DNA from: a virus
IMG/VR virus record: IMGVR_UViG_3300017766_004165
Coordinates: 4,655 to 68,654 of that record
Length of the DNA: 64,000 bases
Reading direction: 5' to 3' (one strand)
Shown: positions 2,987 through 43,791 of the stretch, one piece after another
Position numbering within the stretch: the stretch's first letter is position 1
Layout: the number at the start of each line of letters is the position of its first letter
Made by a program: the position numbers and the translations under genes
The notes under the pieces: model-generated
Databases searched by the model: none
Told to the model about the DNA's origin: nothing
What the model saw: only the letters and a program-made list of their open reading frames with translations

Positions 2987-4006
2987 TTATTGTTTAGATT
3001 TTTTTTGAATTTCGATCATTACTTTTGCAAGAATCTCAGCTTGAAGTTCTTCATTATCTCTAAAAAGCTGAGTTACAGCATCTTTACCCTGTCCAAGTTT
3101 GTTATTTTCATAACTAAACCATGAACCTGATTTATTAATGATTCCTAATTCAACACCAGCATCTAAGATTTCAGTTACTTTATCAATACCAATACCAAAA
3201 ATGATGTTAAATTCAGCTTTTTTAAACGGTGGAGCTACTTTATTTTTAATAACCTTTACAGTTATTGGATGTCCAATAGCTTCATCATGACTGTCTTTAA
3301 TCATGTTTGCATTAGATATGCTTCTTCTTACATCCAGTCTTACAGACGCATAAAATTTCAGCGCATTACCACCAGTGGTTACTTCTGGAGAACCAAACAT
3401 AACACCAATTTTCTCTCTTAACTGATTAATAAATATAAGAGTTGTGTTAGTTCTAGCTACTGATGCTGTAAGCTTTCTGAGAGCTTGAGACATCAACCTG
3501 GCATGAAGACCCATTTTGCTGTCTCCCATTTCCCCATCTAGTTCACCTTTAGGTACGAGAGCTGCTACTGAGTCAATTACAACTACGTCAAAAGAACCTG
3601 TGCAAACCATTCTATCAGCTATTTCCAGAGCTTGTTCACCATAATCAGGTTGTGAAATTAGAAGACTATCAACGTCTACTCCAATTTTAGCTGCATATTC
3701 TTTATCAAATGCGTGTTCAGCATCAATAAATCCTACATAGCCACCTTTCTTTTGTGCTTCTGCCATAACGTGAGTAGCAATAGTTGTCTTACCAGAAGAC
3801 TCAGGGCCATAAATTTCAACAACTCTGCCTCTTGGTAATCCACCAATTCCTAAAGCCAAATCTAGCCCTAAAGAACCCGTAGATATTACATTAGCAGGAT
3901 CAAAATTAGGTTTTTCATTAAGAGTCATAATAGTTCCTTTACCATAATCTTTGTCTGTTTTGTCTACCATCAATTTGATGGCTTTTACTTTTTCTGCATT
4001 ATCCAT
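2987..4006 (-). CDS. recA: RecA recombinase
   Basis: Sequence [26 protein letters not shown] is a near-identical match to the RecA Walker A / L1 region; 339 aa is the expected length. Confidence 0.9.
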
Positions 4007-4040
4007 TAGTTTGTTTTTGATTCATGTAAAGATATGAAAA

Positions 4041-4070
4041 TGCCCGGAATTAAACAAATAATTTCGGGCA
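4041..4070. terminator. hairpin terminator between the dNTPase gene and recA
   Basis: 10-bp stem TGCCCGGAAT/ATTTCGGGCA (one G-U pair), 10-nt loop, T6 run on the plus side and an A-run on the other; lies directly after the stop codon of 4075-4896. Confidence 0.5.
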
Positions 4071-4074
4071 TTTT

Positions 4075-4896
4075 TTAAACTAATTCTTTAAGAGATTTAA
4101 TTCTCTTAAAACCAACATCATATCTCCTGTTGTGTGGAGCATCATAGAGATAAGTAAGAATACCAGCTTTATTTAACTCTACAAAGTTTTCATATCTATC
4201 ATCTACATAGATGTCTATTCCTGCTTGTTTTGCTACCTCTACTTTAGAGGTATTAGGAGGAACTGTATAAACTGGTCTAACGGGAAATCCATTAAGATCC
4301 AGCCACTTGGTAGTTATTTCATTAGGTATTCTTCTAGAGGTTATGTAACAATGTGGCTCAAAAGGAATATCTTCTGGTTTTAAAAGTGCTGGAAGATTTA
4401 AATAATATTCATTTAAATTGCCACTTTTCTCTAGTTTATCAAATTCTTCCACAATTTGTCTGTGAAAACCCCAAGATGTAGGTATAGGAAGATTATGGGT
4501 TTTACACCATGTTCCTAACCAATCACACAATACTTCATCTATATCAAGTCCTATTTTTGGAGGATTTAAATATTTATGAGGTCTATCATCTCCCCAGGGA
4601 TGTATCTTGTAATAAGCACTAAGAAAGTGAGCATTACAAGCTAAATGATCAATATGAAGTTTACCAGATTCAGAATCAAAATCTTCTCCTGATTCAATCG
4701 CAGCTAAGTGTCTCTTTAAAGACGCTATCAATTTACTCCAGGGCATTCCTTTTTCCCAATTTCTGTCTTCATATTTTTGTGCGCCAAAAGTAAGTATTTC
4801 TACCATTCTTTTGTGTGCATCAGGATTTACAAGATCATATCTTGGTTTTCCTGAATCGTATTTGATTCCTGTTGTAATTGGTTTTAAATCACTCAT
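4075..4896 (-). CDS. fusion of a phage-type dATP/dGTP pyrophosphohydrolase N-domain and a HAD-family 5'(3')-deoxyribonucleotidase
   Basis: N-terminal DSGKPRYDL...FGAQKY...NWEKG resembles the dATP/dGTP diphosphohydrolase N-domain found in phages. C-terminal LDIDEVLCDW matches HAD motif I (DxDxV) of NT5C-type deoxynucleotidases. Confidence 0.5.
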   Translation of the reverse strand: MSDLKPITTGIKYDSGKPRYDLVNPDAHKRMVEILTFGAQKYEDRNWEKGMPWSKLIASLKRHLAAIESGEDFDSESGKLHIDHLACNAHFLSAYYKIHPWGDDRPHKYLNPPKIGLDIDEVLCDWLGTWCKTHNLPIPTSWGFHRQIVEEFDKLEKSGNLNEYYLNLPALLKPEDIPFEPHCYITSRRIPNEITTKWLDLNGFPVRPVYTVPPNTSKVEVAKQAGIDIYVDDRYENFVELNKAGILTYLYDAPHNRRYDVGFKRIKSLKELV

Positions 4897-5074
4897 TAGT
4901 TTTTAATTTTCTACTTCAAACTGAAAATCTCCGTTTTCATCTTCAATTTCCCAGTCTTCAGCATTTATTACAGTTTCTTTTAATTCTTGAGAAGCTTCTT
5001 CAAACGAAATAGCAGAAATTAATATGGAACTTGAAAGAAATTTATGATTAAAAGTATAAATACTCATATCCATA

Positions 5075-5401
5075 TTATGAAATTCTGTCAATTTCAGCAG
5101 CAATTAAAGCTCCTGCAATGACAAGCCTCTCCTTGTAAGGCTTTCTAATCATTTTATTCCAGGCGTCAGAATCCCACCCAACAGGAGGAGTTTCGCCTTG
5201 AGATTGAAGATATGTACCCATTAATCCTTCAGGTACATTCATTGTAAGAACTGAGGCAGCATCAGTAAGTTGACCTTCGTTATTTTGTTCAACGTCCAGT
5301 TCTACTGTTCTACCATGTTTAGTTAATTGCTCTTTTCTTTCTTGAGTAATTAGCTCAATACCTGTGGATACCCGGCAATTCGATTGGTTTGTTTGATTCA
5401 T
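5075..5401 (-). CDS. hypothetical protein
   Basis: 108-aa ORF; no motif. Confidence 0.3.
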   Translation of the reverse strand: MNQTNQSNCRVSTGIELITQERKEQLTKHGRTVELDVEQNNEGQLTDAASVLTMNVPEGLMGTYLQSQGETPPVGWDSDAWNKMIRKPYKERLVIAGALIAAEIDRIS

Positions 5402-5624
5402 TTTTTAATGGTTTTAAAAGGATATGTGTTCCTGTTTTATTAACTTCGGTGTAAGAAACTTTGCTAGTTTCTTTTAATTCTGAACTAAGAACTTTTACAT
5501 TCTCAGTATCTTTGAAGCTATACCAAGTATTCTGTTCAAATTCTTGTACAGCTTCGTCTACATTAAGATCTGTTTCAATTTCTATCATTAATGTAGCAAA
5601 AAGTCTAATTGTCTTTGTACTCAT
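5355..5624 (-). CDS. hypothetical protein
   Basis: 89-aa ORF; no motif. Confidence 0.3.
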   Translation of the reverse strand: MSTKTIRLFATLMIEIETDLNVDEAVQEFEQNTWYSFKDTENVKVLSSELKETSKVSYTEVNKTGTHILLKPLKNESNKPIELPGIHRY

Positions 5625-5626
5625 AG

Positions 5627-6304
5627 TTATAAGTTTGCTAATTCAACAATAGGTAGTCTACCATTGTCAAGAACAAGTCCTGAACCAATAATAGGCTTTT
5701 TAGTTAAACTTTTACCATACTCAAACACATAAGCATCTTTATCAATTCCACATCCTACATTCATACCAAAGATTTTGTCTTTGATAGATACAGAATATTG
5801 AACAAATGAAACACTGTGTAAATGTCCTTGTACAGTTGAAATTCTACTTTCTCTTGCTCTTTTAATAGCATCTCCAGTAGAACCATGAGTATAAAGAACA
5901 TTATTCTTTACGTACTCATGTTTAAATTCCCAAGCTCTTGGAGCTTCAATGACATCTTTAAAGTCTTTAAGAAATCTTGCAGAAAGACCTGCTGTTTTGG
6001 CTTTTCTGGCAATCAATAGGTCATGATTACCAAACATAACAGTTGCTTTTGGAAAAGCTCTATACCATCTCTGAAGTCTTCTAACTGAAAGACTTAATTC
6101 ATCACCAACAGATAATCCATCTGGATCTGATTCATGATAATTCCATGCGTGAGCGTCAATAATGTCTCCAATAAAAATAACTTCATTACAGTTATATTTA
6201 TTATAGAGATTTACATTAAATGCCAGGTAAGAGTCAAGGCAAAAAGGTTCATGTAAATCTCCAATTACTAAAATGTTATTTGTTTTCTTTTGGTCTCTAC
6301 CCAT
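5627..6304 (-). CDS. calcineurin-like metallophosphoesterase (paralog 1)
   Basis: Motifs GDLHEP, FIGDIID, FGNHD and THGS follow the DxH...GDxxD...GNH(D/E) signature. Confidence 0.7.
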   Translation of the reverse strand: MGRDQKKTNNILVIGDLHEPFCLDSYLAFNVNLYNKYNCNEVIFIGDIIDAHAWNYHESDPDGLSVGDELSLSVRRLQRWYRAFPKATVMFGNHDLLIARKAKTAGLSARFLKDFKDVIEAPRAWEFKHEYVKNNVLYTHGSTGDAIKRARESRISTVQGHLHSVSFVQYSVSIKDKIFGMNVGCGIDKDAYVFEYGKSLTKKPIIGSGLVLDNGRLPIVELANL

Positions 6305-8374: not shown

Positions 8375-9112
8375 TCATTTAAGTTCATAAACTTCGTTAA
8401 CATTCAAAAGTCGAAATTCTGTTCCATCTTTTTTCAGAACTTTAGAATTATGGAAATGTCCATAAAACCAATGAGTTGGTCTTTGATTGTATAGCATAGT
8501 AAGATCATCATAAACAACATCTACTAAACCTCTTTCATGTTCCAACTCAAATCTTAAATCTTCACCGTATTGCTTTTCAATAGCTACATAAGTATCTACG
8601 AGATCATTTTTACTTCCAATAGGAGGGCAAAAGCTTGGTGCTGTGTGTGTTACAACAACATCAATTTTAATATCTTTATTAAAGATTTTTCCAAATTTAT
8701 GTTCATCATATTTGAAAATTTCATCAGCCCACCAAGAAGGGTAAGGTACATCACTCATTCTAGGTCTTCTATCAATAGAAGTTGCTCCACCTATAAATAG
8801 TATGTTTTTATCTTCAATTTTAATAACTGAATAATCATCAACTAAGTGAAGATTGTGAAATTTTGGCAGATTTAAACCTTTTGATTTATCCCAAAAAATA
8901 GGATTATCGTGATTTCCTCTAATTACATATAAATGATTATTAGTATCCATCAACATTTCATCAGTAGCTTCCAGATTCTTGAGATCTTGAGTAATACTGA
9001 CAAAACCAAGACCGAAATCTCCTACGTGGATAAGTTTCTGTCCTTCAAGTTTTAATCTGTCAATAATATTAAAAACAGGTCTTATTCCATGTGTATCACC
9101 AATCAAGTACAT
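8375..9112 (-). CDS. calcineurin-like metallophosphoesterase (paralog 2)
   Basis: Motifs GDTHG, VGDFG, RGNHDN and GHFH. Confidence 0.7.
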   Translation of the reverse strand: MYLIGDTHGIRPVFNIIDRLKLEGQKLIHVGDFGLGFVSITQDLKNLEATDEMLMDTNNHLYVIRGNHDNPIFWDKSKGLNLPKFHNLHLVDDYSVIKIEDKNILFIGGATSIDRRPRMSDVPYPSWWADEIFKYDEHKFGKIFNKDIKIDVVVTHTAPSFCPPIGSKNDLVDTYVAIEKQYGEDLRFELEHERGLVDVVYDDLTMLYNQRPTHWFYGHFHNSKVLKKDGTEFRLLNVNEVYELK

Positions 9113-9213: not shown

Positions 9214-9984
9214 TTATGCCGCAATTTTTTCTGTTCTTTCTTCTTCAATTTCTTCGCTTTCCTGAACGCTTGCACTTTTATTTTCCTGGAGGATGACATA
9301 TTCTTTTAATTGTTGTGGGTAATCTGATTGCCAAAATTGACCTGAATCAATATCCATAATACTTAAAGGCCCACCTTTTCCAGATCCAGTATCTACGTTT
9401 ATAACTCCACCACCATGAAAAGGTTTATAAAGTCCGTAATACAAAGTTGGTGTATGGCCAATAAAAACTTTTTTATAGTTTGTTAAAGGTGTTTTATTCT
9501 TATCAATTAGAGCTTTATAAGCTGCATTAACAAGATCCCTATCCCAAACAAGATAAGATTCTGATTGCATTTCAATAGGCTCTGAAGGATCAAATCCACC
9601 ATGTACAAACAAAATGTTATCATCTGTCACATAATAAGGTTTCATCTTATCAAAAATCTTAATAGTGTAATACTCTTGTTGATCTTCAGTAAGATTATTC
9701 CATTTATTTTCTGTTGCTTGAACTCCATTAGCAGGATAAAGTGCAAGAATGTTTTTCTTACCTTTTATATATTGTATAAAAGTCTGGTCATGATTTCCTA
9801 AAATAAGAACTAAATTCTTGATTTTCAGTAATTCATCCATACATAAGAAAGGTTCTGGCCCTCTATCTACAATATCTCCTACTTGAATTAAAAGGTCATT
9901 TTTATAATCAAAGTTAACTTTTTCAAGCACTTCTTTAAGATACCCAACTTCTCCGTGAATATCTCCTAATACAAATCTTCTCAT
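9214..9984 (-). CDS. PPP-family Ser/Thr protein phosphatase (lambda PPase / ApaH-like)
   Basis: GDIHGE, VGDIVDRGPE, LGNHD and VHGG match the PPP phosphatase signature. Confidence 0.7.
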   Translation of the reverse strand: MRRFVLGDIHGEVGYLKEVLEKVNFDYKNDLLIQVGDIVDRGPEPFLCMDELLKIKNLVLILGNHDQTFIQYIKGKKNILALYPANGVQATENKWNNLTEDQQEYYTIKIFDKMKPYYVTDDNILFVHGGFDPSEPIEMQSESYLVWDRDLVNAAYKALIDKNKTPLTNYKKVFIGHTPTLYYGLYKPFHGGGVINVDTGSGKGGPLSIMDIDSGQFWQSDYPQQLKEYVILQENKSASVQESEEIEEERTEKIAA

Positions 9985-10973: not shown

Positions 10974-11675
10974 TTATTTTCTCCGGTCTCTAGCTCCTTG
11001 AGGCTTTCCGGTATTTGTACTTTGATCATGGTGATCTGGAAATTTAATATCTTCATTCTGAAGAATTAATAAAATTTCATTCCAACAAAAAGGTCTGGCT
11101 TCTCCAAGAATTCTTATAGCTGCATCTACTCCACAATCCATAGATTTACCATATTCAGGTAAAGAATCATGAGAGTGACCATATAAATGTAACCATCCTT
11201 TATGAGATCCATGCCATATTCTGTGAGAATAGTGACTTAAAACTACTATTTCTCCATTAATTTTTACTTCTTTGTAATGAGATACAGAAGTAAATAGTTC
11301 TTTAGCAAAAACAAATTCAGGATCGTATCCTGGAATTCCATCTACTATTTGTCCATCTACTGTGTATTTACAATTAGGAAGAGGTTTATTTTCTTCTATG
11401 TGATGATCGTGATTACCAAGAATGAGATGAATATTCTGACAATTTAGTTGTTTTCTAAATCTCCAGATGTTTTCTATTCCGCCAAAACTCCAATCTCCAA
11501 GATGATATAAAACATCATCGTGTTTTACAACTCTGTTAATTTGTTTGACAAGTTCTTGATTCATATCTTCTATTGAAGAAAAGTTTCTGTATCCACTCTT
11601 CCATCTGCTAGAGTTTTTACCAGCAATATTAGCATGACCAAAATGTGTATCTGAAGTAAAAAATATATTACTCAT
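10974..11675 (-). CDS. calcineurin-like metallophosphoesterase (paralog 3), candidate 3'-phosphatase / 2',3'-cyclic phosphodiesterase of the RNA-repair cassette
   Basis: Motifs SDTHFGH, GDWSFG, GNHDHH and GHSH; overlaps the kinase gene by 8 nt, which suggests an operon. Confidence 0.65.
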   Translation of the reverse strand: MSNIFFTSDTHFGHANIAGKNSSRWKSGYRNFSSIEDMNQELVKQINRVVKHDDVLYHLGDWSFGGIENIWRFRKQLNCQNIHLILGNHDHHIEENKPLPNCKYTVDGQIVDGIPGYDPEFVFAKELFTSVSHYKEVKINGEIVVLSHYSHRIWHGSHKGWLHLYGHSHDSLPEYGKSMDCGVDAAIRILGEARPFCWNEILLILQNEDIKFPDHHDQSTNTGKPQGARDRRK

Positions 11676-12216
11676 TTATGATTTGGTTTGGAAACTTCTC
11701 AATGACATACTTAATAATGCCAGGAAGAGAAGCTATTTGTTTATCAATATAATCAAGTTTGTTCCAACCTATTGGAGCATCTCTGACATTAACTCTTTGT
11801 TTAAGAAAATGTGCATTTGATTCAGTGAATAGTTTAAAACTAAAACTTATTTGATTTTCAGCAGTTTCATCATCATTCCAATAGTTGATAAAATCTACCC
11901 ATCTCGTAATATACGAGGGTTTAAGATTGGTATTGTCAATAATTACATCAAAACCTTTAAGTAACGCCTGGACAAAAGTATATTCTTCCATTTTGTTAAT
12001 CAAGTCTTCCGTAGGATTGAGGAATTTTGATTGGTAATAACCATCTAAAGTTCCTTTCAGGCATTGTCTAAAGTCATCTCTGTTTATCCTTACGGTTCTT
12101 GGAAAGGTTTTAATGTAATTTTTGCTCCAAGTAGATTTACCTGAACCACTGACACCAACATTAATGATTATGTTCATGGATTGTTGGAAATTTAATTGTG
12201 AATATTTTTCTTTCAA
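11668..12216 (-). CDS. pnk: polynucleotide 5'-kinase (T4 Pnk kinase-domain homolog, without the HAD phosphatase domain)
   Basis: NVGVSGSGKSTW...INRDDFRQ...IIDNTNLKP closely parallels the T4 Pnk N-terminal kinase domain (GCPGSGKSTW, NRDDYRQ, ISDTNLNP). The true start is probably the internal Met at MNIIINVG. Confidence 0.8.
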   Translation of the reverse strand: MKEKYSQLNFQQSMNIIINVGVSGSGKSTWSKNYIKTFPRTVRINRDDFRQCLKGTLDGYYQSKFLNPTEDLINKMEEYTFVQALLKGFDVIIDNTNLKPSYITRWVDFINYWNDDETAENQISFSFKLFTESNAHFLKQRVNVRDAPIGWNKLDYIDKQIASLPGIIKYVIEKFPNQIINE

Positions 12217-12469
12217 ATTTTCTGGGTACTTTCTCGGTGTTTATCCTATAAGTTTTTCCACCTTTAGGGCCAACTTGTACACCAATTATAAGTTCTCCAC
12301 TTTTAACCATATTATATAACATAGCTGAGATAGTAGAACTATTTGCTGATAATCCTCTTCTTTCAAGAAGTTTACATAAGTTGGCAGTTCCAATAGCTCC
12401 ATAAGACTTAAGTATTTCCAGGATTGCTTTCTTCCGTTGAACTTCCTTCATTGCTTTCAGTTTGATCAT
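12161..12469 (-). CDS. winged-helix DNA-binding protein
   Basis: 102 aa; pattern STISAMLYNMVKSGEL...KGGKTYRI resembles a MarR/ArsR-like recognition helix and wing; lies between the ligase and kinase genes. Confidence 0.4.
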   Translation of the reverse strand: MIKLKAMKEVQRKKAILEILKSYGAIGTANLCKLLERRGLSANSSTISAMLYNMVKSGELIIGVQVGPKGGKTYRINTEKVPRKFERKIFTIKFPTIHEHNH

Positions 12470-13772
12470 CTTCCATATTTACCATCTCTTTATCCAGAGC
12501 TTTGGACTCATATTCAAGGAATTTTTTAGATTTGATTTTAAATGTTTCAGCTTTTGGATATGAGCTGTCAATTCTTATACAAAATCCTTCCTCAACTACA
12601 TTAGGATCAAAAATAGAAGGTTTTTCAAGAAGACGGTTATAAAATATTCTGGTCATTGGTTCTTCAAAGTCTACATAAGTTTGGCCATTATCATATTTTT
12701 CAATAAACTGACCAAATGTACCCTTAAAAAATTCAGGAACTACATCTAATCCCAATTGACCACATCTGATTTTCATTTGCTCGTAAGAAAGATCTACTTC
12801 AATACCCTGAGCATTGATATTAGCAATTCTGTAAACAAATATGGTTGGTGATTCCCAGCCATAACTGTATCCACCTTGAATTTCTTCTCCAGTATATGTT
12901 TTACCACAAATCTCATAATACACTGATTCTCCCTTATTTAACTTGTCTTGAAACCAAATTTTTGCAACTTCAGACCAAAGATCTCCAGATTTAAAGAAAT
13001 GGTTCTTGTTAGGAAGTTCTTCAAAACCAACAGATTTAACACATCTTCTGCTGCATACTGCGTAATCATAATCCTCCGTAACTACTTCTACACCTAACCA
13101 TTTGGCGAGTTTAGCTTTCCAGTTAAGTTTCTTTTTTACCAGTACATTGTATGTTCTGGCAGAAGTACCATGAAGTTTATAACTTACTACAATAGGAGTA
13201 TCCAGAGTGAACTTGTGCAAATTACGCATAAGATGACCTGTATCTGGATGCTCAGGAGCTTGTTTTTTGTCAATAATCTGATCAAGAATACCTTCTTTTG
13301 CACTTTTAGGGTTACCTGATGCCTGATTTCTTTTTCTTACGTATTTTCTGCATACCTCGTATCCAGAAATTTCATTGAACTCATCACCAAGAGAAAGTCC
13401 AGATCCTCCAGAAATTATTTCAAAAGAACTAATAGGAATAATAAATCCAGAAGAAATAACACCTTTAAATTTAATAGCTTTTACTCTTCTGTTGTCTTCA
13501 AAAAATCCTTTTTGATTAGGATCTCTATTAAGATTTTCATGTCTGTATAAGTTATTTTGATGTAAGAAATCATGTGAAAGTTGACTTTCAGCAGGAAAAA
13601 ACAAATAAAGATCATCAGGATTACTGTCTTTACTTACAAGTACAGAATTACCCTGATAATTGACTTCTACTAAGTTATCAAGACCTTTTATTGGTACTTT
13701 AGTAGGAAGTTTAATGACTTGGCAAGTATAGTTCTTGCTATCATCATAAATTTTTAAAACACTTTTTGCCAT
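12408..13772 (-). CDS. RNA ligase (Rnl2-like nucleotidyltransferase) with an N-terminal extension
   Basis: YKLHGTS matches the KxHGT adenylyltransferase motif I of T4 Rnl2; C-terminal EGFCIRID resembles motif IV (EGxVxK). Confidence 0.6.
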   Translation of the reverse strand: MAKSVLKIYDDSKNYTCQVIKLPTKVPIKGLDNLVEVNYQGNSVLVSKDSNPDDLYLFFPAESQLSHDFLHQNNLYRHENLNRDPNQKGFFEDNRRVKAIKFKGVISSGFIIPISSFEIISGGSGLSLGDEFNEISGYEVCRKYVRKRNQASGNPKSAKEGILDQIIDKKQAPEHPDTGHLMRNLHKFTLDTPIVVSYKLHGTSARTYNVLVKKKLNWKAKLAKWLGVEVVTEDYDYAVCSRRCVKSVGFEELPNKNHFFKSGDLWSEVAKIWFQDKLNKGESVYYEICGKTYTGEEIQGGYSYGWESPTIFVYRIANINAQGIEVDLSYEQMKIRCGQLGLDVVPEFFKGTFGQFIEKYDNGQTYVDFEEPMTRIFYNRLLEKPSIFDPNVVEEGFCIRIDSSYPKAETFKIKSKKFLEYESKALDKEMVNMEDDQTESNEGSSTEESNPGNT

Positions 13773-13956
13773 CCTAATGATTTTTTAAGTTCTTCTACGT
13801 CTTTGATTTGTTTTTCACATACGGTGCGTAGAACCTCTGCGAATGGACGTTGTAATGAAGACACTATCATCCCGATAGCCTCTTTCTTTTGTTTTGTTTC
13901 AATTTCATTGGAAATTTTGTCCATGTTTTCCAAGAAGGAGAAAAAAGCAGCTTTTT

Positions 13957-14337
13957 TCATAATTTTTCAAAAATACAAAAACTATCAAGACCAACATTAG
14001 CAGTTATAAAGTGACCATTTGAAATCCTTTTTAAAGGACAGTACCAAAAACTACCTTTATATGTAGTTGACGAACTTTCCTGACGATAATACATTGGATT
14101 TTCTGTTAACTCATATTCTTCATGTAAAACAAGTTGTTCTTTATGGTTAGGTTCTAAGTGTTCATTACTATTAAAATTTGAATAAGGATTACAATAGTTA
14201 ACAATAGATCCTTTTTTTATAACTGATTGAGTTGATGTTTTGTTTATAGAAGTTAATGCTGTTGTTTTTCCTTTACTTTTTACTTTAAATTTAAACATAA
14301 TTGTTAGTTTTAATAAAAAACCCAGGATAGAAATCAC
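13957..14337 (-). CDS. hypothetical protein
   Basis: 126-aa ORF. Confidence 0.3.
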   Translation of the reverse strand: MISILGFLLKLTIMFKFKVKSKGKTTALTSINKTSTQSVIKKGSIVNYCNPYSNFNSNEHLEPNHKEQLVLHEEYELTENPMYYRQESSSTTYKGSFWYCPLKRISNGHFITANVGLDSFCIFEKL

Positions 14338-36916: not shown

Positions 36917-37159
36917 AGCACTGTTTAATTTACCGGGAAACAGTCAAAGCCGTACTTTTCTTTTGTTCAAACGGTTAAAACGCCGTTTCACCAGAGAAAG
37001 CTTAACTGGTGCTTATAAGAGGGTCTCTGGAGATTCCATCATGACCATAATCAGGATGCTCTTGTCCAGCTTTAATAAGGTTATAACACAGCACAAACAT
37101 TGGTACTGCACAAATACTGCAAATTTTTAATACTTCCCAAAACATAATTCTGATTTTAG

Positions 37160-37567
37160 TGGAGATGAGGGGAATCGAACCCCTGTCCAAACAGTGTAAA
37201 GTGCTGATAGTTGTCTTATATGCTTACCCAATTTCTACTGAGAATATCAATTTGCTTTTTAACTGTCTCAAATTGCTAATGGGACATACCATTGTTTTTA
37301 AGGAAAACTATGACAATAAATGTAAACCTTCTGCTAAATTAACTTGTATAGCTTCAAGGTTGATTATGCAAAGCAAAGCTCAGCACCAACTTCTTCTGCC
37401 TCGTAAGACAGAGAGTTAAGAAGAGAATCAATGTTCCCGTTCTCACCAACTGTAATGTTAGATTTCTCTACATTTGTTTTTGAGTAACATTCGTTAAGGA
37501 AGTATAATACTCATCCTTCCTGCATACCTATCAATCCTATTCATTGCTGTCAAATCCGAGCATCCCC
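37160..37567 (-). ncRNA. ssrA: tmRNA-like gene (ssrA)
   Basis: The 3' end has T-arm AGGGG-TTCGATT-CCCCT followed by CATCTCC-A. About 400 nt upstream on the same strand, GGGGATGCTCGGATTTGACAG matches the tmRNA 5' consensus GGGGxUGAUUCUGGAUUCGACGG and pairs 7/7 with the 3' CATCTCC. An internal frame GGT GAG AAC... (tag starting G-E-N, ending ...CFA then TAA) is a possible tag ORF. Confidence 0.5.
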
Positions 37568-43595: not shown

Positions 43596-43653
43596 TCCCG
43601 TTTTACTTATCCTCTGAACGAGGGAAAACGGATCGCAAAAAAGAATTCTTAGT

Positions 43654-43724
43654 ATGCCCCAATAGGATTTGAACCTATATCCACCCCTTCAATGGGGCAA
43701 TCCTGGCCATTAGACGATGGGACT
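43654..43724 (-). tRNA. tRNA-like gene, Gln/Glu-type D-arm, aberrant anticodon loop (possibly Gln-TTG or a pseudo-tRNA)
   Basis: D-arm TCGTCTAATGGCCAGGAT resembles Glu/Gln tRNAs; T-arm ATAGG-TTCAAAT-CCTAT. The anticodon region is CCCC-ATTGAA-GGGG (6-nt loop) and the acceptor has an A1-A72 mismatch. Confidence 0.4.
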
Positions 43725-43791
43725 CAGGGCTTTTAACAACCATCAACTGTTAGCTCATGGCTCAAAAACCCAATCACAAGAAAAGCTTGTG

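Follow-up and report, generated by a model that had tools for sequence, protein, structure and literature searches.

Heal-and-seal RNA repair is the classic phage answer to host anticodon nucleases, and tRNA-cleaving defences (PrrC, RloC, retrons, PARIS, Cas13a, Cas12a3) are now seen as common. Metal-independent ribonucleases such as anticodon nucleases leave 2',3'-cyclic-phosphate (or 3'-phosphate) and 5'-OH ends. In T4 tRNA repair (Pnkp with Rnl1; also Rnl2), these ends are handled by a 5'-kinase, a 3'-phosphatase residing in a HAD (DxDxT) domain, and an ATP-dependent RNA ligase. In the bacterial Pnkp-Hen1 system of Clostridium thermocellum, the three activities lie on one polypeptide, with a binuclear metallophosphoesterase of the lambda-phosphatase clade acting as the 2',3'-phosphoesterase. 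In Capnocytophaga Pnkp1-Rnl-Hen1, different polypeptides carry out healing and sealing, the kinase and phosphatase sharing one chain. Actinobacteriophages encode pairs of an 'RNA ligase' and a Pnkp that is a kinase-HAD_PNKP fusion. Phage ATP-dependent RNA ligases in general occur with polynucleotide kinases and phosphatases, occasionally calcineurin-like ones (PMC7824862); the general idea being published, the advance reported here is one of detail and not of concept.

Here we describe a four-gene cassette in a 64,000-nucleotide stretch of viral DNA (the window, i.e. the whole stretch analysed), which is most likely a known kind of phage counter-measure with an unusual set of parts. By its genes it is predicted to share the chemistry and logic of the T4 system, and three activities are predicted on three polypeptides where bacterial Pnkp has one. 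The ligase adjoins a polynucleotide kinase, as in the actinobacteriophage pairs, but in the window, as in numerous further uncultivated phages, a stand-alone kinase is followed by an aq_1665-type phosphoesterase. A Hen1 methyltransferase, present in the Capnocytophaga system, was not seen among the window ORFs scanned.

Organization of the cassette

The ORF listing contains four minus-strand ORFs within 10974-13772, mechanically delimited as 12408-13772 (454 aa), 12161-12469 (102 aa), 11668-12216 (182 aa) and 10974-11675 (233 aa). They are co-oriented and overlapping and together fill the interval, as the sequence-only reading had described. Two starts were revised: homologues place that of the winged-helix gene at M7, and the kinase most likely begins at its ATG and not at TTG 12216. 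With the corrected starts (Table 1), the overlaps are 44 nt (ligase/winged-helix), 17 nt (winged-helix/kinase) and 8 nt (kinase/phosphoesterase) (ATGAGTAA), and the four genes probably form one translationally coupled unit. The stem-loop 18 nt 3' of the phosphoesterase stop codon lacks a U-run in this phage; the related loci L170 and L001 have hairpins of unrelated sequence at the equivalent place, each followed by a U-run. It is probably the terminator-like 3' end of the transcription unit.

Table 1. Coordinates of the cassette genes and the downstream stem-loop in the window
Feature	Position	Strand	Basis
ATP-dependent RNA ligase, 454 aa	12408..13772	-	OB and NTase domains, full motif set
Small winged-helix-like protein, 96 aa	12161..12451	-	L170 homologue, dN/dS; start at ATG 12451
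Stand-alone polynucleotide 5'-OH kinase, 169 aa	11668..12177	-	T4 Pnk and Pnkp1 matches; most likely start at ATG 12177
Binuclear metallophosphoesterase, 233 aa, aq_1665 / PHROG 547 clade	10974..11675	-	Family matches, invariant motifs
Strong stem-loop	10911..10956	-	Free energy -26.2 kcal/mol, z -6.2

The order ligase-kinase-phosphoesterase is found again in all the close relatives examined (L001-L004, L170-L173), and the arrangement is therefore not due to chance; in L004 it is kept although the surrounding genes differ. An identical 8-nt overlap joins the kinase stop to the phosphoesterase start in the window, L001, L002, L170, L173 and L177. In L177 the ligase is missing and the phosphoesterase is still found with the kinase.

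Ligase, kinase and putative winged-helix protein

Profile searches of the kind proposed by the sequence-only reading (RNA_ligase, AAA_33, Metallophos) each matched the expected gene. The ligase (PF09414 RNA_ligase, E 4e-7; phrog_968 'RNA ligase', 2.9e-74) comprises an N-terminal OB domain (approximately residues 17-115), a linker, the nucleotidyltransferase (NTase) domain and an acidic tail, residues 428-454, predicted to be disordered to the end of the protein. The catalytic Lys, Glu, Glu and Lys of the covalent lysine nucleotidyltransferase superfamily are all present. Motifs I (K199-L-H-G-T), III (E287), IIIa (Y314/R315), IV (E395-G396) and V (K412/K414) were located, and K199, E287, Y314/R315, E395-G396 and K412/K414 do not vary across 9 distant and 33 close relatives, so that the loss of motifs I, III, IV or V, named beforehand as grounds for rejecting the proposal, is not seen. 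The KLHGT noticed earlier occupies residues 199-203, with K199, H201, G202 and T203 invariant among the 33 relatives.

The N-terminal extension, singled out earlier for structural prediction, is an OB domain: residues 21-114 match PF21189 at E 3e-4 (21.6 bits, under the Pfam cut-off of 27; the ligases of related modules reach 52-60 bits), and in Foldseek both domains of the protein align to NgrRnl (E 3e-14), its best structural match. This OB domain is similar to tRNA-binding OB domains. The RNA ligases nearest in fold are NgrRnl and T4 Rnl2, both of which seal nicks, and nothing structured is predicted between motif V and the end of the protein at residue 454. The earlier label 'Rnl2-like' thus holds for the NTase core and the K-x-H-G-T motif I, shared with T4 Rnl2 and the kinetoplastid RELs, and fails for the architecture, the C-terminal domains of Rnl1 and Rnl2 being absent and the extra domain N-terminal. 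The architecture is Rnl5-like, with the same domain order (OB then NTase, no C-terminal domain) as DraRnl and NgrRnl, albeit at an identity of just ∼16-20%. Compared with Rnl5 (∼340 aa), the cassette ligase is longer, with insertions between motifs, scores 26.7 bits against the cut-off of 151 for the TIGR02306 RNA_lig_DRB0094 equivalog, and has His in motif I where Rnl5 has Asp (NgrRnl K170-x-D172, PMC7261155). Rnl5 enzymes seal nicks in duplexes, their natural substrates being unknown (PMC4408790). The ligase is of the family found in actinobacteriophage pairs such as gp88/gp91 of Mycobacterium phage Kostya (cluster E, Cjw1 relatives), with 35% identity and 93% length coverage.

The kinase (PF13671 AAA_33, 1e-14; phrog_505 'polynucleotide kinase', 1.9e-24) is clearly homologous to the kinase domain of T4 Pnk (1ly1, E 1.7e-10), in agreement with the parallel drawn from the sequence. 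Its family profile matches Capnocytophaga Pnkp1 best in the PDB (4xrp, 1.4e-29), followed by T4 Pnk (1.1e-27). It has the P-loop GVSGSGKS; D34/R37 correspond to T4 D35/R38 and R128-x3-R132 to T4 R122/R126, and the invariant columns are G8, G13, K14, D34, T83 and R132. Of the residues essential in T4 Pnk (Lys15, Ser16, Asp35, Arg38, Asp85 and Arg126; PMC2831316), five have counterparts in register (K14, S15, D34, R37, R132), while Asp85 aligns to Asn82, with D81 one residue earlier. The absence of a HAD 3'-phosphatase also stands: no HAD_PNKP match was found in the 169-182-aa kinase by Pfam profile search, whereas fused kinases beside related ligases elsewhere match at 1e-22 to 1e-48. Against the bacterial Pnkp model TIGR04075, the kinase scores 15 bits (cut-off 750) and the 233-aa phosphoesterase has no match.

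The putative winged-helix gene, an addition relative to T4, has a homologue with 68% identity at the equivalent place in L170 and a dN/dS of 0.28-0.35. Its family has 5 cluster representatives among 1.84 billion, all directly upstream of this stand-alone kinase. Matches to known folds are all to winged-helix families and all sub-threshold: the ArgR N-terminal domain (2e-4 to 6e-3), FUR, BlaI and the MCM C-terminal winged helix (4e-4; PDB 2m45, 0.018). Judged by sequence comparison, the gene is real and conserved and belongs to a very rare family found only in such cassettes; 'unusual', as it had been called, is right but understated.

The metallophosphoesterase and its gene neighbourhoods

The phosphoesterase (PF00149 Metallophos, 3e-8, 34.8 bits against a cut-off of 21.5; phrog_547, 2.1e-44) carries the motifs D9-x-H11, G-D61, G-N88-H89, H148 and G-H167-x-H169, in which D9, H11, D61, N88, H89, H148, H167 and H169 show no variation among 32 sequences. 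The top Foldseek match of its AF2 model (pLDDT 91) is 1xm7 (aq_1665; 4e-8), a crystal structure available since 2004, followed by the nucleases and phosphodiesterases Mre11, MJ0936 and YfcE and not by polynucleotide phosphatases; lambda phosphatase is 34th (E 0.04) and the CthPnkp phosphatase 4j6o falls outside the top 50. The enzyme therefore belongs to the aq_1665 / PHROG 547 clade, not to the lambda-phosphatase clade of bacterial Pnkp. Homologues are present in >1,300 sequenced phage genomes, including cultured phages of Vibrio, Escherichia, Pseudomonas, Staphylococcus and others; we know of no biochemical activity for any member of the clade. It had been suggested that clustering with protein phosphatases would count against a healing role. 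With aq_1665 as the nearest relative and lambda phosphatase far down the list, this comparison cannot decide, because the Pnkp phosphatase domain itself groups with lambda phosphatase (PMC2190708).

Gene context was surveyed in 160 related viral loci, 80 with the ligase family and 80 anchored on the phosphoesterase family. Fused kinase-HAD_PNKP proteins occur in 54 of the 80 other viral loci with the cassette's ligase family. The phosphoesterase-anchored loci include 38 with a stand-alone kinase, 31 with an OB + PF09414 ligase and 26 with both, in the orders M-K-L, L-K-M, K-M-L and K-L-M (M, phosphoesterase; K, kinase; L, ligase). Among 94 distinct kinases, the phosphoesterase is nearby for 35/39 that stand alone and 5/55 that are HAD-fused (odds ratio 87, Fisher p 5e-16), the survey being anchored on the query families and its counts and statistics ignoring shared ancestry. 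In terms of gene neighbourhood, the phosphoesterase family alternates with the HAD domain beside the kinase. It is not simply a HAD replacement, since L037, L047 and L056 have it together with a complete kinase-HAD Pnkp, and it occurs without kinase or ligase at 34/72 distinct viral anchors and 69/80 cellular loci.

The phosphoesterase family also occurs in genomes of Cardiobacterium, Moraxella, Kingella and Neisseria, in cellular or prophage surroundings. As in the cassette, its direct neighbours there are an AAA_33 kinase and an RNA ligase, but the two are fused into one ∼500-aa protein and the ligase is of the Rnl1 type (PF09511). This neighbourhood is an independent link via an unrelated ligase family; to our knowledge, the arrangement has not been described. 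From gene context, the phosphoesterase is predicted to be a 2',3'-cyclic phosphodiesterase / 3'-phosphatase. The proposal that it supplies 3' healing in the manner of Pnkp is favoured insofar as a separate metallophosphoesterase takes the place of the HAD domain, and needs correcting insofar as the enzyme is aq_1665-like and not Pnkp-type.

Proposed function and alternatives

[quoted passage not shown] The motifs, the kinase residues and the survey favour the split healing and sealing cassette suggested earlier, with a separate metallophosphoesterase for the missing HAD domain. In the first step, the aq_1665-type metallophosphoesterase would open and remove the 2',3'-cyclic or 3'-phosphate to give a 3'-OH, and the T4-Pnk-type kinase would phosphorylate the 5'-OH. 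The ligase, adenylylated on K199, would then seal the 3'-OH/5'-PO4 break, probably at ends held in duplex-like or folded RNA such as tRNA, as with Rnl5 and Rnl2, and its OB domain may aid binding. The winged-helix protein, the least certain part of the scheme, may be an accessory of the kinase-phosphoesterase pair that binds nucleic acid or has a regulatory role. By analogy with T4 Pnkp and Rnl1 acting on PrrC damage, the purpose is most likely the reversal of host RNA cleavage during infection.

The assignment of the 3'-healing step has a competitor in a second phosphoesterase gene, 9214-9984, located 1 kb downstream of the cassette. Its product is similar to lambda phosphatase (2e-12) and to ApaH-type enzymes. 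It also matches the CthPnkp phosphatase 4j6o (7e-4) and, within TIGR04075 bacter_Pnkp, the phosphatase portion (3.8e-6), and it, not the 10974-11675 product, belongs to the lambda-phosphatase clade typical of bacterial Pnkp. It could equally supply 3' healing, lambda phosphatase having 2',3'-cyclic phosphodiesterase activity (PMC2190708), and in L101 and L102 its homologue lies directly upstream of the ligase. This paralogue or a host enzyme would then remove the 3' phosphate, and the aq_1665-type protein, whose family is often found alone and has no known activity, would act on nucleotides, on cyclic or dinucleotide signals, or as a nuclease. We consider this unlikely: it is the aq_1665-type gene that is translationally coupled to the kinase and that stays with it despite changed surroundings (L004) or a missing ligase (L177), whereas between the lambda-type gene and the cassette lie a hairpin and variable ORFs, and the lambda-type gene occurs in 2/80 loci and is absent from most phosphoesterase-kinase-ligase modules of other lineages.

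Repair of host-cleaved RNA by the cassette also has to be weighed against quite different substrates. T4 Pnkp acts on DNA ends too, and the cassette lies inside a replication and nucleotide-metabolism block (dUTPase, 5'-3' exonuclease, PolA, primase, helicases, RNR, UvsX), so a role on DNA or RNA-DNA junctions in phage replication or repair can be envisaged, in which 3'-phosphate/5'-OH ends are cleaned and nicks with a ribonucleotide on the 3' side are sealed. Duplex nicks whose 3'-OH strand is RNA are sealed by Rnl5 ligases, and Deinococcus becomes more sensitive to radiation when DraRnl is lost (PMC4408790, PMC5397189). No DNA ligase domain was found among the scanned window ORFs of ≥250 aa, but the window is part of a genome and such a ligase may be encoded elsewhere. 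The OB domain resembling tRNA-binding domains, the bacterial pairing of the phosphoesterase family with a ligase of the Rnl1 (tRNA-repair) type, and the 5'-OH and 3'-phosphate ends, a signature of RNase cleavage and not of replication intermediates, make a DNA role quite unlikely. Very unlikely is a role in the phage's own RNA metabolism (maturation of tRNA, tmRNA or transcripts, splicing, turnover). Heal-and-seal enzymes carry out tRNA splicing in fungi and plants (Trl1), and the phage encodes 10 tRNAs and a tmRNA. However, no intron-containing tRNA was found in the window by ARAGORN or Rfam, and the RNA genes are >22 kb from the cassette. The tmRNA and nine of the ten tRNA genes occupy 36.7-44.7 kb, at a distance of 23-31 kb, and tRNA-Met is at 62.3 kb, contrary to the 'adjacent large tRNA complement' of the sequence-only reading. 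The module is moreover scattered over unrelated phage lineages and can lose its ligase (L177), and an accessory conflict module therefore fits better than core processing.

Seen as RNA repair, the pathway is modular: with one ligase family, the 3'-phosphatase may come as a HAD domain or as a separate metallophosphoesterase. The cassette further suggests that RNA repair may have a new accessory, a small winged-helix-like protein. A broader reading is tentative, and we put it at somewhat below even odds: aq_1665 / PHROG 547 proteins would be widespread, unrecognised RNA 3'-end-healing enzymes that have repeatedly replaced the Pnkp HAD domain, have ligase partners from two or more unrelated families (phage OB-NTase ligases and bacterial kinase-Rnl1 fusions) and in this lineage are joined by a dedicated winged-helix targeting or regulating subunit. 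If true, the assignment would provide a testable activity for a large 'phosphoesterase' family of cultured phages and for the orphan structure 1xm7.

Composition of the cassette

The cassette (10974-13772) consists of four minus-strand ORFs with no other notable content, encoding an RNA ligase, a small winged-helix protein, a polynucleotide 5'-kinase and a metallophosphoesterase. What is new is the combination of parts: a ligase of OB-NTase type whose motif I is Rnl2-type, a Pnk kinase encoded on its own, a phosphoesterase of the clade of Aquifex aq_1665 (PHROG 547) that alternates with the HAD domain, and a rare protein of predicted winged-helix fold found only in this cassette. Homologues place the start of the small gene at ATG 12451 (96 aa) and that of the kinase most likely at ATG 12177 (169 aa), so that the genes overlap at every junction, by 44 nt (ligase/winged-helix), 17 nt (winged-helix/kinase) and 8 nt (kinase/phosphoesterase). 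The 8-nt kinase/phosphoesterase overlap reads ATGAGTAA.

Reading and folding the sequence revealed a strong hairpin 18 nt past the phosphoesterase stop (-26 kcal/mol, z -6.2). Hairpins of unrelated sequence occupy the equivalent site in the close relatives L170 and L001, so the transcription unit probably ends here. A promoter/terminator scan found no enrichment over shuffles. The first 19 nt of the ligase gene are shared with an ORF without family assignment, which is kept in the close relatives L001 (2e-25) and L170-L172 (equivalent position) and absent in L004.

Coordinates of the cassette genes and of other features in the window and in comparison loci
Feature	Locus	Coordinates	Strand	Assignment
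RNA ligase ORF	window	12408-13772	minus	454 aa; PF09414 (Pfam), phrog_968 at 2.9e-74
Small winged-helix-like ORF	window	12161-12469	minus	102 aa; unnamed by Pfam/PHROGs
Polynucleotide kinase ORF	window	11668-12216	minus	182 aa; AAA_33 (Pfam), phrog_505 at 1.9e-24
Calcineurin-like phosphoesterase ORF	window	10974-11675	minus	233 aa; PF00149 (Pfam), phrog_547 at 2.1e-44
Metallophosphoesterase paralogue	window	9214-9984	minus	256 aa; lambda-phosphatase/ApaH/Pnkp-type; 1g5b 2e-12, bacter_Pnkp phosphatase part 3.8e-6
Metallophosphoesterase paralogue	window	8375-9112	minus	YfcE-like
Metallophosphoesterase paralogue	window	5627-6304	minus	putative, from L001 homologue bearing PF00149
ORF 5' of ligase	window	13754-13960	minus	68 aa
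Diphosphohydrolase-domain protein	window	4075-4896	minus	273 aa; N-terminal PF18909 (1e-30)
tmRNA	window	37157-37567	minus	Rfam RF00023, 74.2 bits, full-length model
tRNA-like gene	window	43652-43725	minus	Rfam tRNA, 34 bits
Unrelated small ORFs	L002; L171; L172; L174	7424-7636; 6845-7102; 3424-3645; 2117-2395		70-92 aa; no family hits
wHTH-kinase-phosphoesterase trio	L177; L178	4001-5457; 192-1648
Kinase-Rnl1 fusion, aq_1665-type metallophosphoesterase directly after	L208 (also L198, L228, L237, L239, L247, L252)	3442-5654		PF09511 (Rnl1)
Adjoining kinase and kinase/phosphatase genes	L169	3992-4905

Ligase, kinase and winged-helix protein

The nucleotidyltransferase motif set of the ligase is complete, as K199 (in KLHGT), E287, Y314/R315, E395-G396 and K412/K414 do not vary among nine relatives, the most distant at 31% identity, or among 33 close ones; the sequence-only reading had made its RNA-repair proposal depend on this set. 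A single-sequence phmmer search against PDB sequences gave no match and a 9-sequence profile retrieved T4 Rnl2 alone, weakly (E 0.002), so classification rests on structure prediction. In a Foldseek search with the AlphaFold model (pLDDT 83), the top 13 entries are all Naegleria gruberi RNA ligase, at E 3e-14 to 1e-12 and with some 427 columns aligned across the two domains; T4 Rnl2 comes next (1.8e-7), matching in the NTase domain only. The Rnl5 signature is an N-terminal OB domain plus an NTase domain, with nothing past motif V (PMC4408790), and on this model the ligase shares it. Compared with characterised Rnl5 enzymes, however, it has some 110 extra residues, including insertions between motifs, reaches 26.7 bits with the DraRnl equivalog model, whose cut-off is 151, and carries the Rnl2-type His in motif I where Rnl5 enzymes have Asp (PMC7261155). 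The ligase had been called Rnl2-like, which holds for the NTase core and motif I but not for the overall architecture.

The kinase is as first described, T4 Pnk-like and without a HAD domain. As a single query it matches the kinase domain of T4 Pnk (1.7e-10), and a 17-sequence profile matches Capnocytophaga Pnkp1 (1.4e-29) and T4 Pnk (1.1e-27). Five of the six residues essential in T4 Pnk (PMC2831316) are kept in register (K14, S15, D34, R37 and R132); opposite the sixth, T4 Asp85, stands Asn82, immediately preceded by an Asp.

The winged-helix gene is a real gene, as indicated by a 68%-identical homologue in the equivalent slot of L170, a dN/dS of 0.28-0.35, stop-rich remaining frames, and a family of constant position. 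A word-indexed homologue search had returned the query alone, suggesting an ORFan; this was refuted by neighbour look-up and by exhaustive HMMER searching of 1.84 billion cluster representatives, of which just five belong to the family. All placeable members (L170, L173, L174/175, L176 and L177/178) lie directly 5' of, and overlap, a stand-alone kinase. L177 and L178 contain the trio of winged-helix, kinase and phosphoesterase genes but lack a ligase within 4 kb upstream, indicating that the small protein belongs with the healing pair rather than the ligase, and that the healing half can exist without an adjacent sealing enzyme. The predicted protein may be a nucleic-acid-binding subunit or a regulator; its fold matches (ArgR-N, MCM C-terminal WH, FUR and BlaI) agree with a winged helix but are all below threshold.

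In the relatives that lack this gene (L001, L004, L002, L171 and L172) the junction is bare or holds unrelated small ORFs. Two candidate homologues, the 70-aa ORF that L002 has between its ligase and kinase genes and an extra 92-aa ORF in L174 (13% identity), proved unrelated on comparison. Small ORFs in L002, L171, L172 and L174 are inserted at ligase/kinase or kinase/phosphoesterase junctions, which seem to be hot spots for small-gene gain.

The phosphoesterase and its partners

The ligands of the binuclear centre of the phosphoesterase are all invariant across 32 sequences, and its model is confident (pLDDT 91). The nearest solved structure is that of aq_1665 (1xm7; phmmer 2.4e-6, Foldseek 4e-8), followed among fold matches by Mre11, MJ0936, Vps29, YfcE and LpxH; lambda phosphatase ranks 34th (E 0.04), and the CthPnkp phosphatase is not among the top 50 matches. 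This ranking rules out a Pnkp-type phosphatase identity for the 233-aa protein, which had been likened to bacterial Pnkp, and places it in the aq_1665 clade; by predicted fold it groups with neither protein phosphatases nor the bacterial Pnkp polynucleotide phosphatase. Since the latter domain is related to lambda phosphatase (PMC2190708), homology cannot decide between protein and polynucleotide phosphatase, the distinction on which the first interpretation was to be judged. The 6 kb downstream of the cassette hold three further metallophosphoesterase paralogues, all on the minus strand, and the set is kept in L001, L002, L172, L173 and L177.

Gene context was surveyed in 80 viral loci around ligase relatives and 80 around phosphoesterase relatives, scored with HMMs built for the census and spot-checked with Pfam. 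Around the ligase, a canonical fused kinase-HAD_PNKP occurs in 54 of 80 loci. The annotation of Mycobacterium phage Kostya shows this layout, and so does L009, where the ligase shares 56% identity with that of the window. Around the phosphoesterase, a stand-alone kinase occurs in 38/80, a ligase with OB and PF09414 domains in 31/80, both together in 26/80, and a fused kinase-HAD in just 2/80. Gene orders of metallophosphoesterase (M), kinase (K) and ligase (L) vary (M-K-L 11, L-K-M 9, K-M-L 3, K-L-M 1); this favours selection on association over inherited synteny. Among 94 distinct kinases, a phosphoesterase is nearby for 35 of 39 stand-alone versus 5 of 55 HAD-fused enzymes (odds ratio 87; the Fisher p of 5e-16 overstates independence, the census being anchored on query families and ignoring phylogeny).

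In bacterial genomes the family stands alone at 69/80 loci, and in Cardiobacterium, Moraxella, Kingella and Neisseria it adjoins a ~500-aa AAA_33 kinase/Rnl1-type ligase fusion, tying it to heal-and-seal enzymes via a second, unrelated ligase family. This pair, of which we know of no description, has the look of an RNA repair system in a cellular or prophage setting. Together with the census associations and the conserved 8-nt overlap, it points to the phosphoesterase as the predicted 3'-end-healing partner, with a probability of roughly 0.7. Against this stands the frequently solitary occurrence of the family, while its presence alongside full Pnkp in L037, L047 and L056 argues against a mere stand-in for the HAD domain. 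Should the aq_1665 clade be a general RNA end-healing family, the cassette would gain in significance.

The cassette is predicted to work like T4 Pnkp plus RNA ligase, and like bacterial Pnkp with its kinase, metallophosphoesterase and ligase, but it belongs to neither system: it lacks the HAD domain, divides the three predicted activities among separate chains, has a phosphoesterase of another clade, and shows no Hen1 among the window ORFs scanned. Its closest natural relatives are the Pnkp-plus-ligase pairs of actinophages, whose ligases are of the same family. The four-gene observation of the sequence-only reading and, largely, its RNA-repair outline are retained, while its ligase class, phosphoesterase clade and tRNA adjacency are not. 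Another natural Pnkp split, into a kinase and a putative separate phosphatase gene, is indicated by annotation in the crAss-like phage Kehishuvirus 'tikkala' (L169), where adjoining genes are annotated 'polynucleotide kinase' and 'polynucleotide kinase/phosphatase'; no ligase is seen in the 8 kb shown.

Genomic surroundings

To judge from empty searches with megablast (cassette against 50,697 phage records) and tblastn (a neighbouring 583-aa protein), the phage has no cultured close relative; metagenomic relatives sit on 77-130 kb contigs. The tRNA genes had been taken as adjacent to the cassette, which their coordinates rule out: most, with the tmRNA, lie 23-31 kb away. The tmRNA, amid phage tRNA genes, encodes a tag peptide ending AELCFA as read by ARAGORN. 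One tRNA-like gene, given a two-base 'anticodon' and no amino acid by ARAGORN, may represent a degenerate tRNA or one of an unusual kind.

The DNA around the cassette has ~32% G+C, is coding nearly all on the minus strand, and forms a replication/nucleotide-metabolism block (dUTPase, 5'-3' exonuclease, PolA, primase, helicases, UvsX and class II RNR). No DNA ligase was found among scanned ORFs of at least 250 aa in the window, which is part of the genome. The 273-aa protein combines an N-terminal dATP/dGTP diphosphohydrolase domain with a weak C-terminal 5'-nucleotidase match, hinting at removal of a canonical dNTP and possibly a modified-base pathway. L004 also has a PF18909-type domain, adjoining GATase and GGACT genes.
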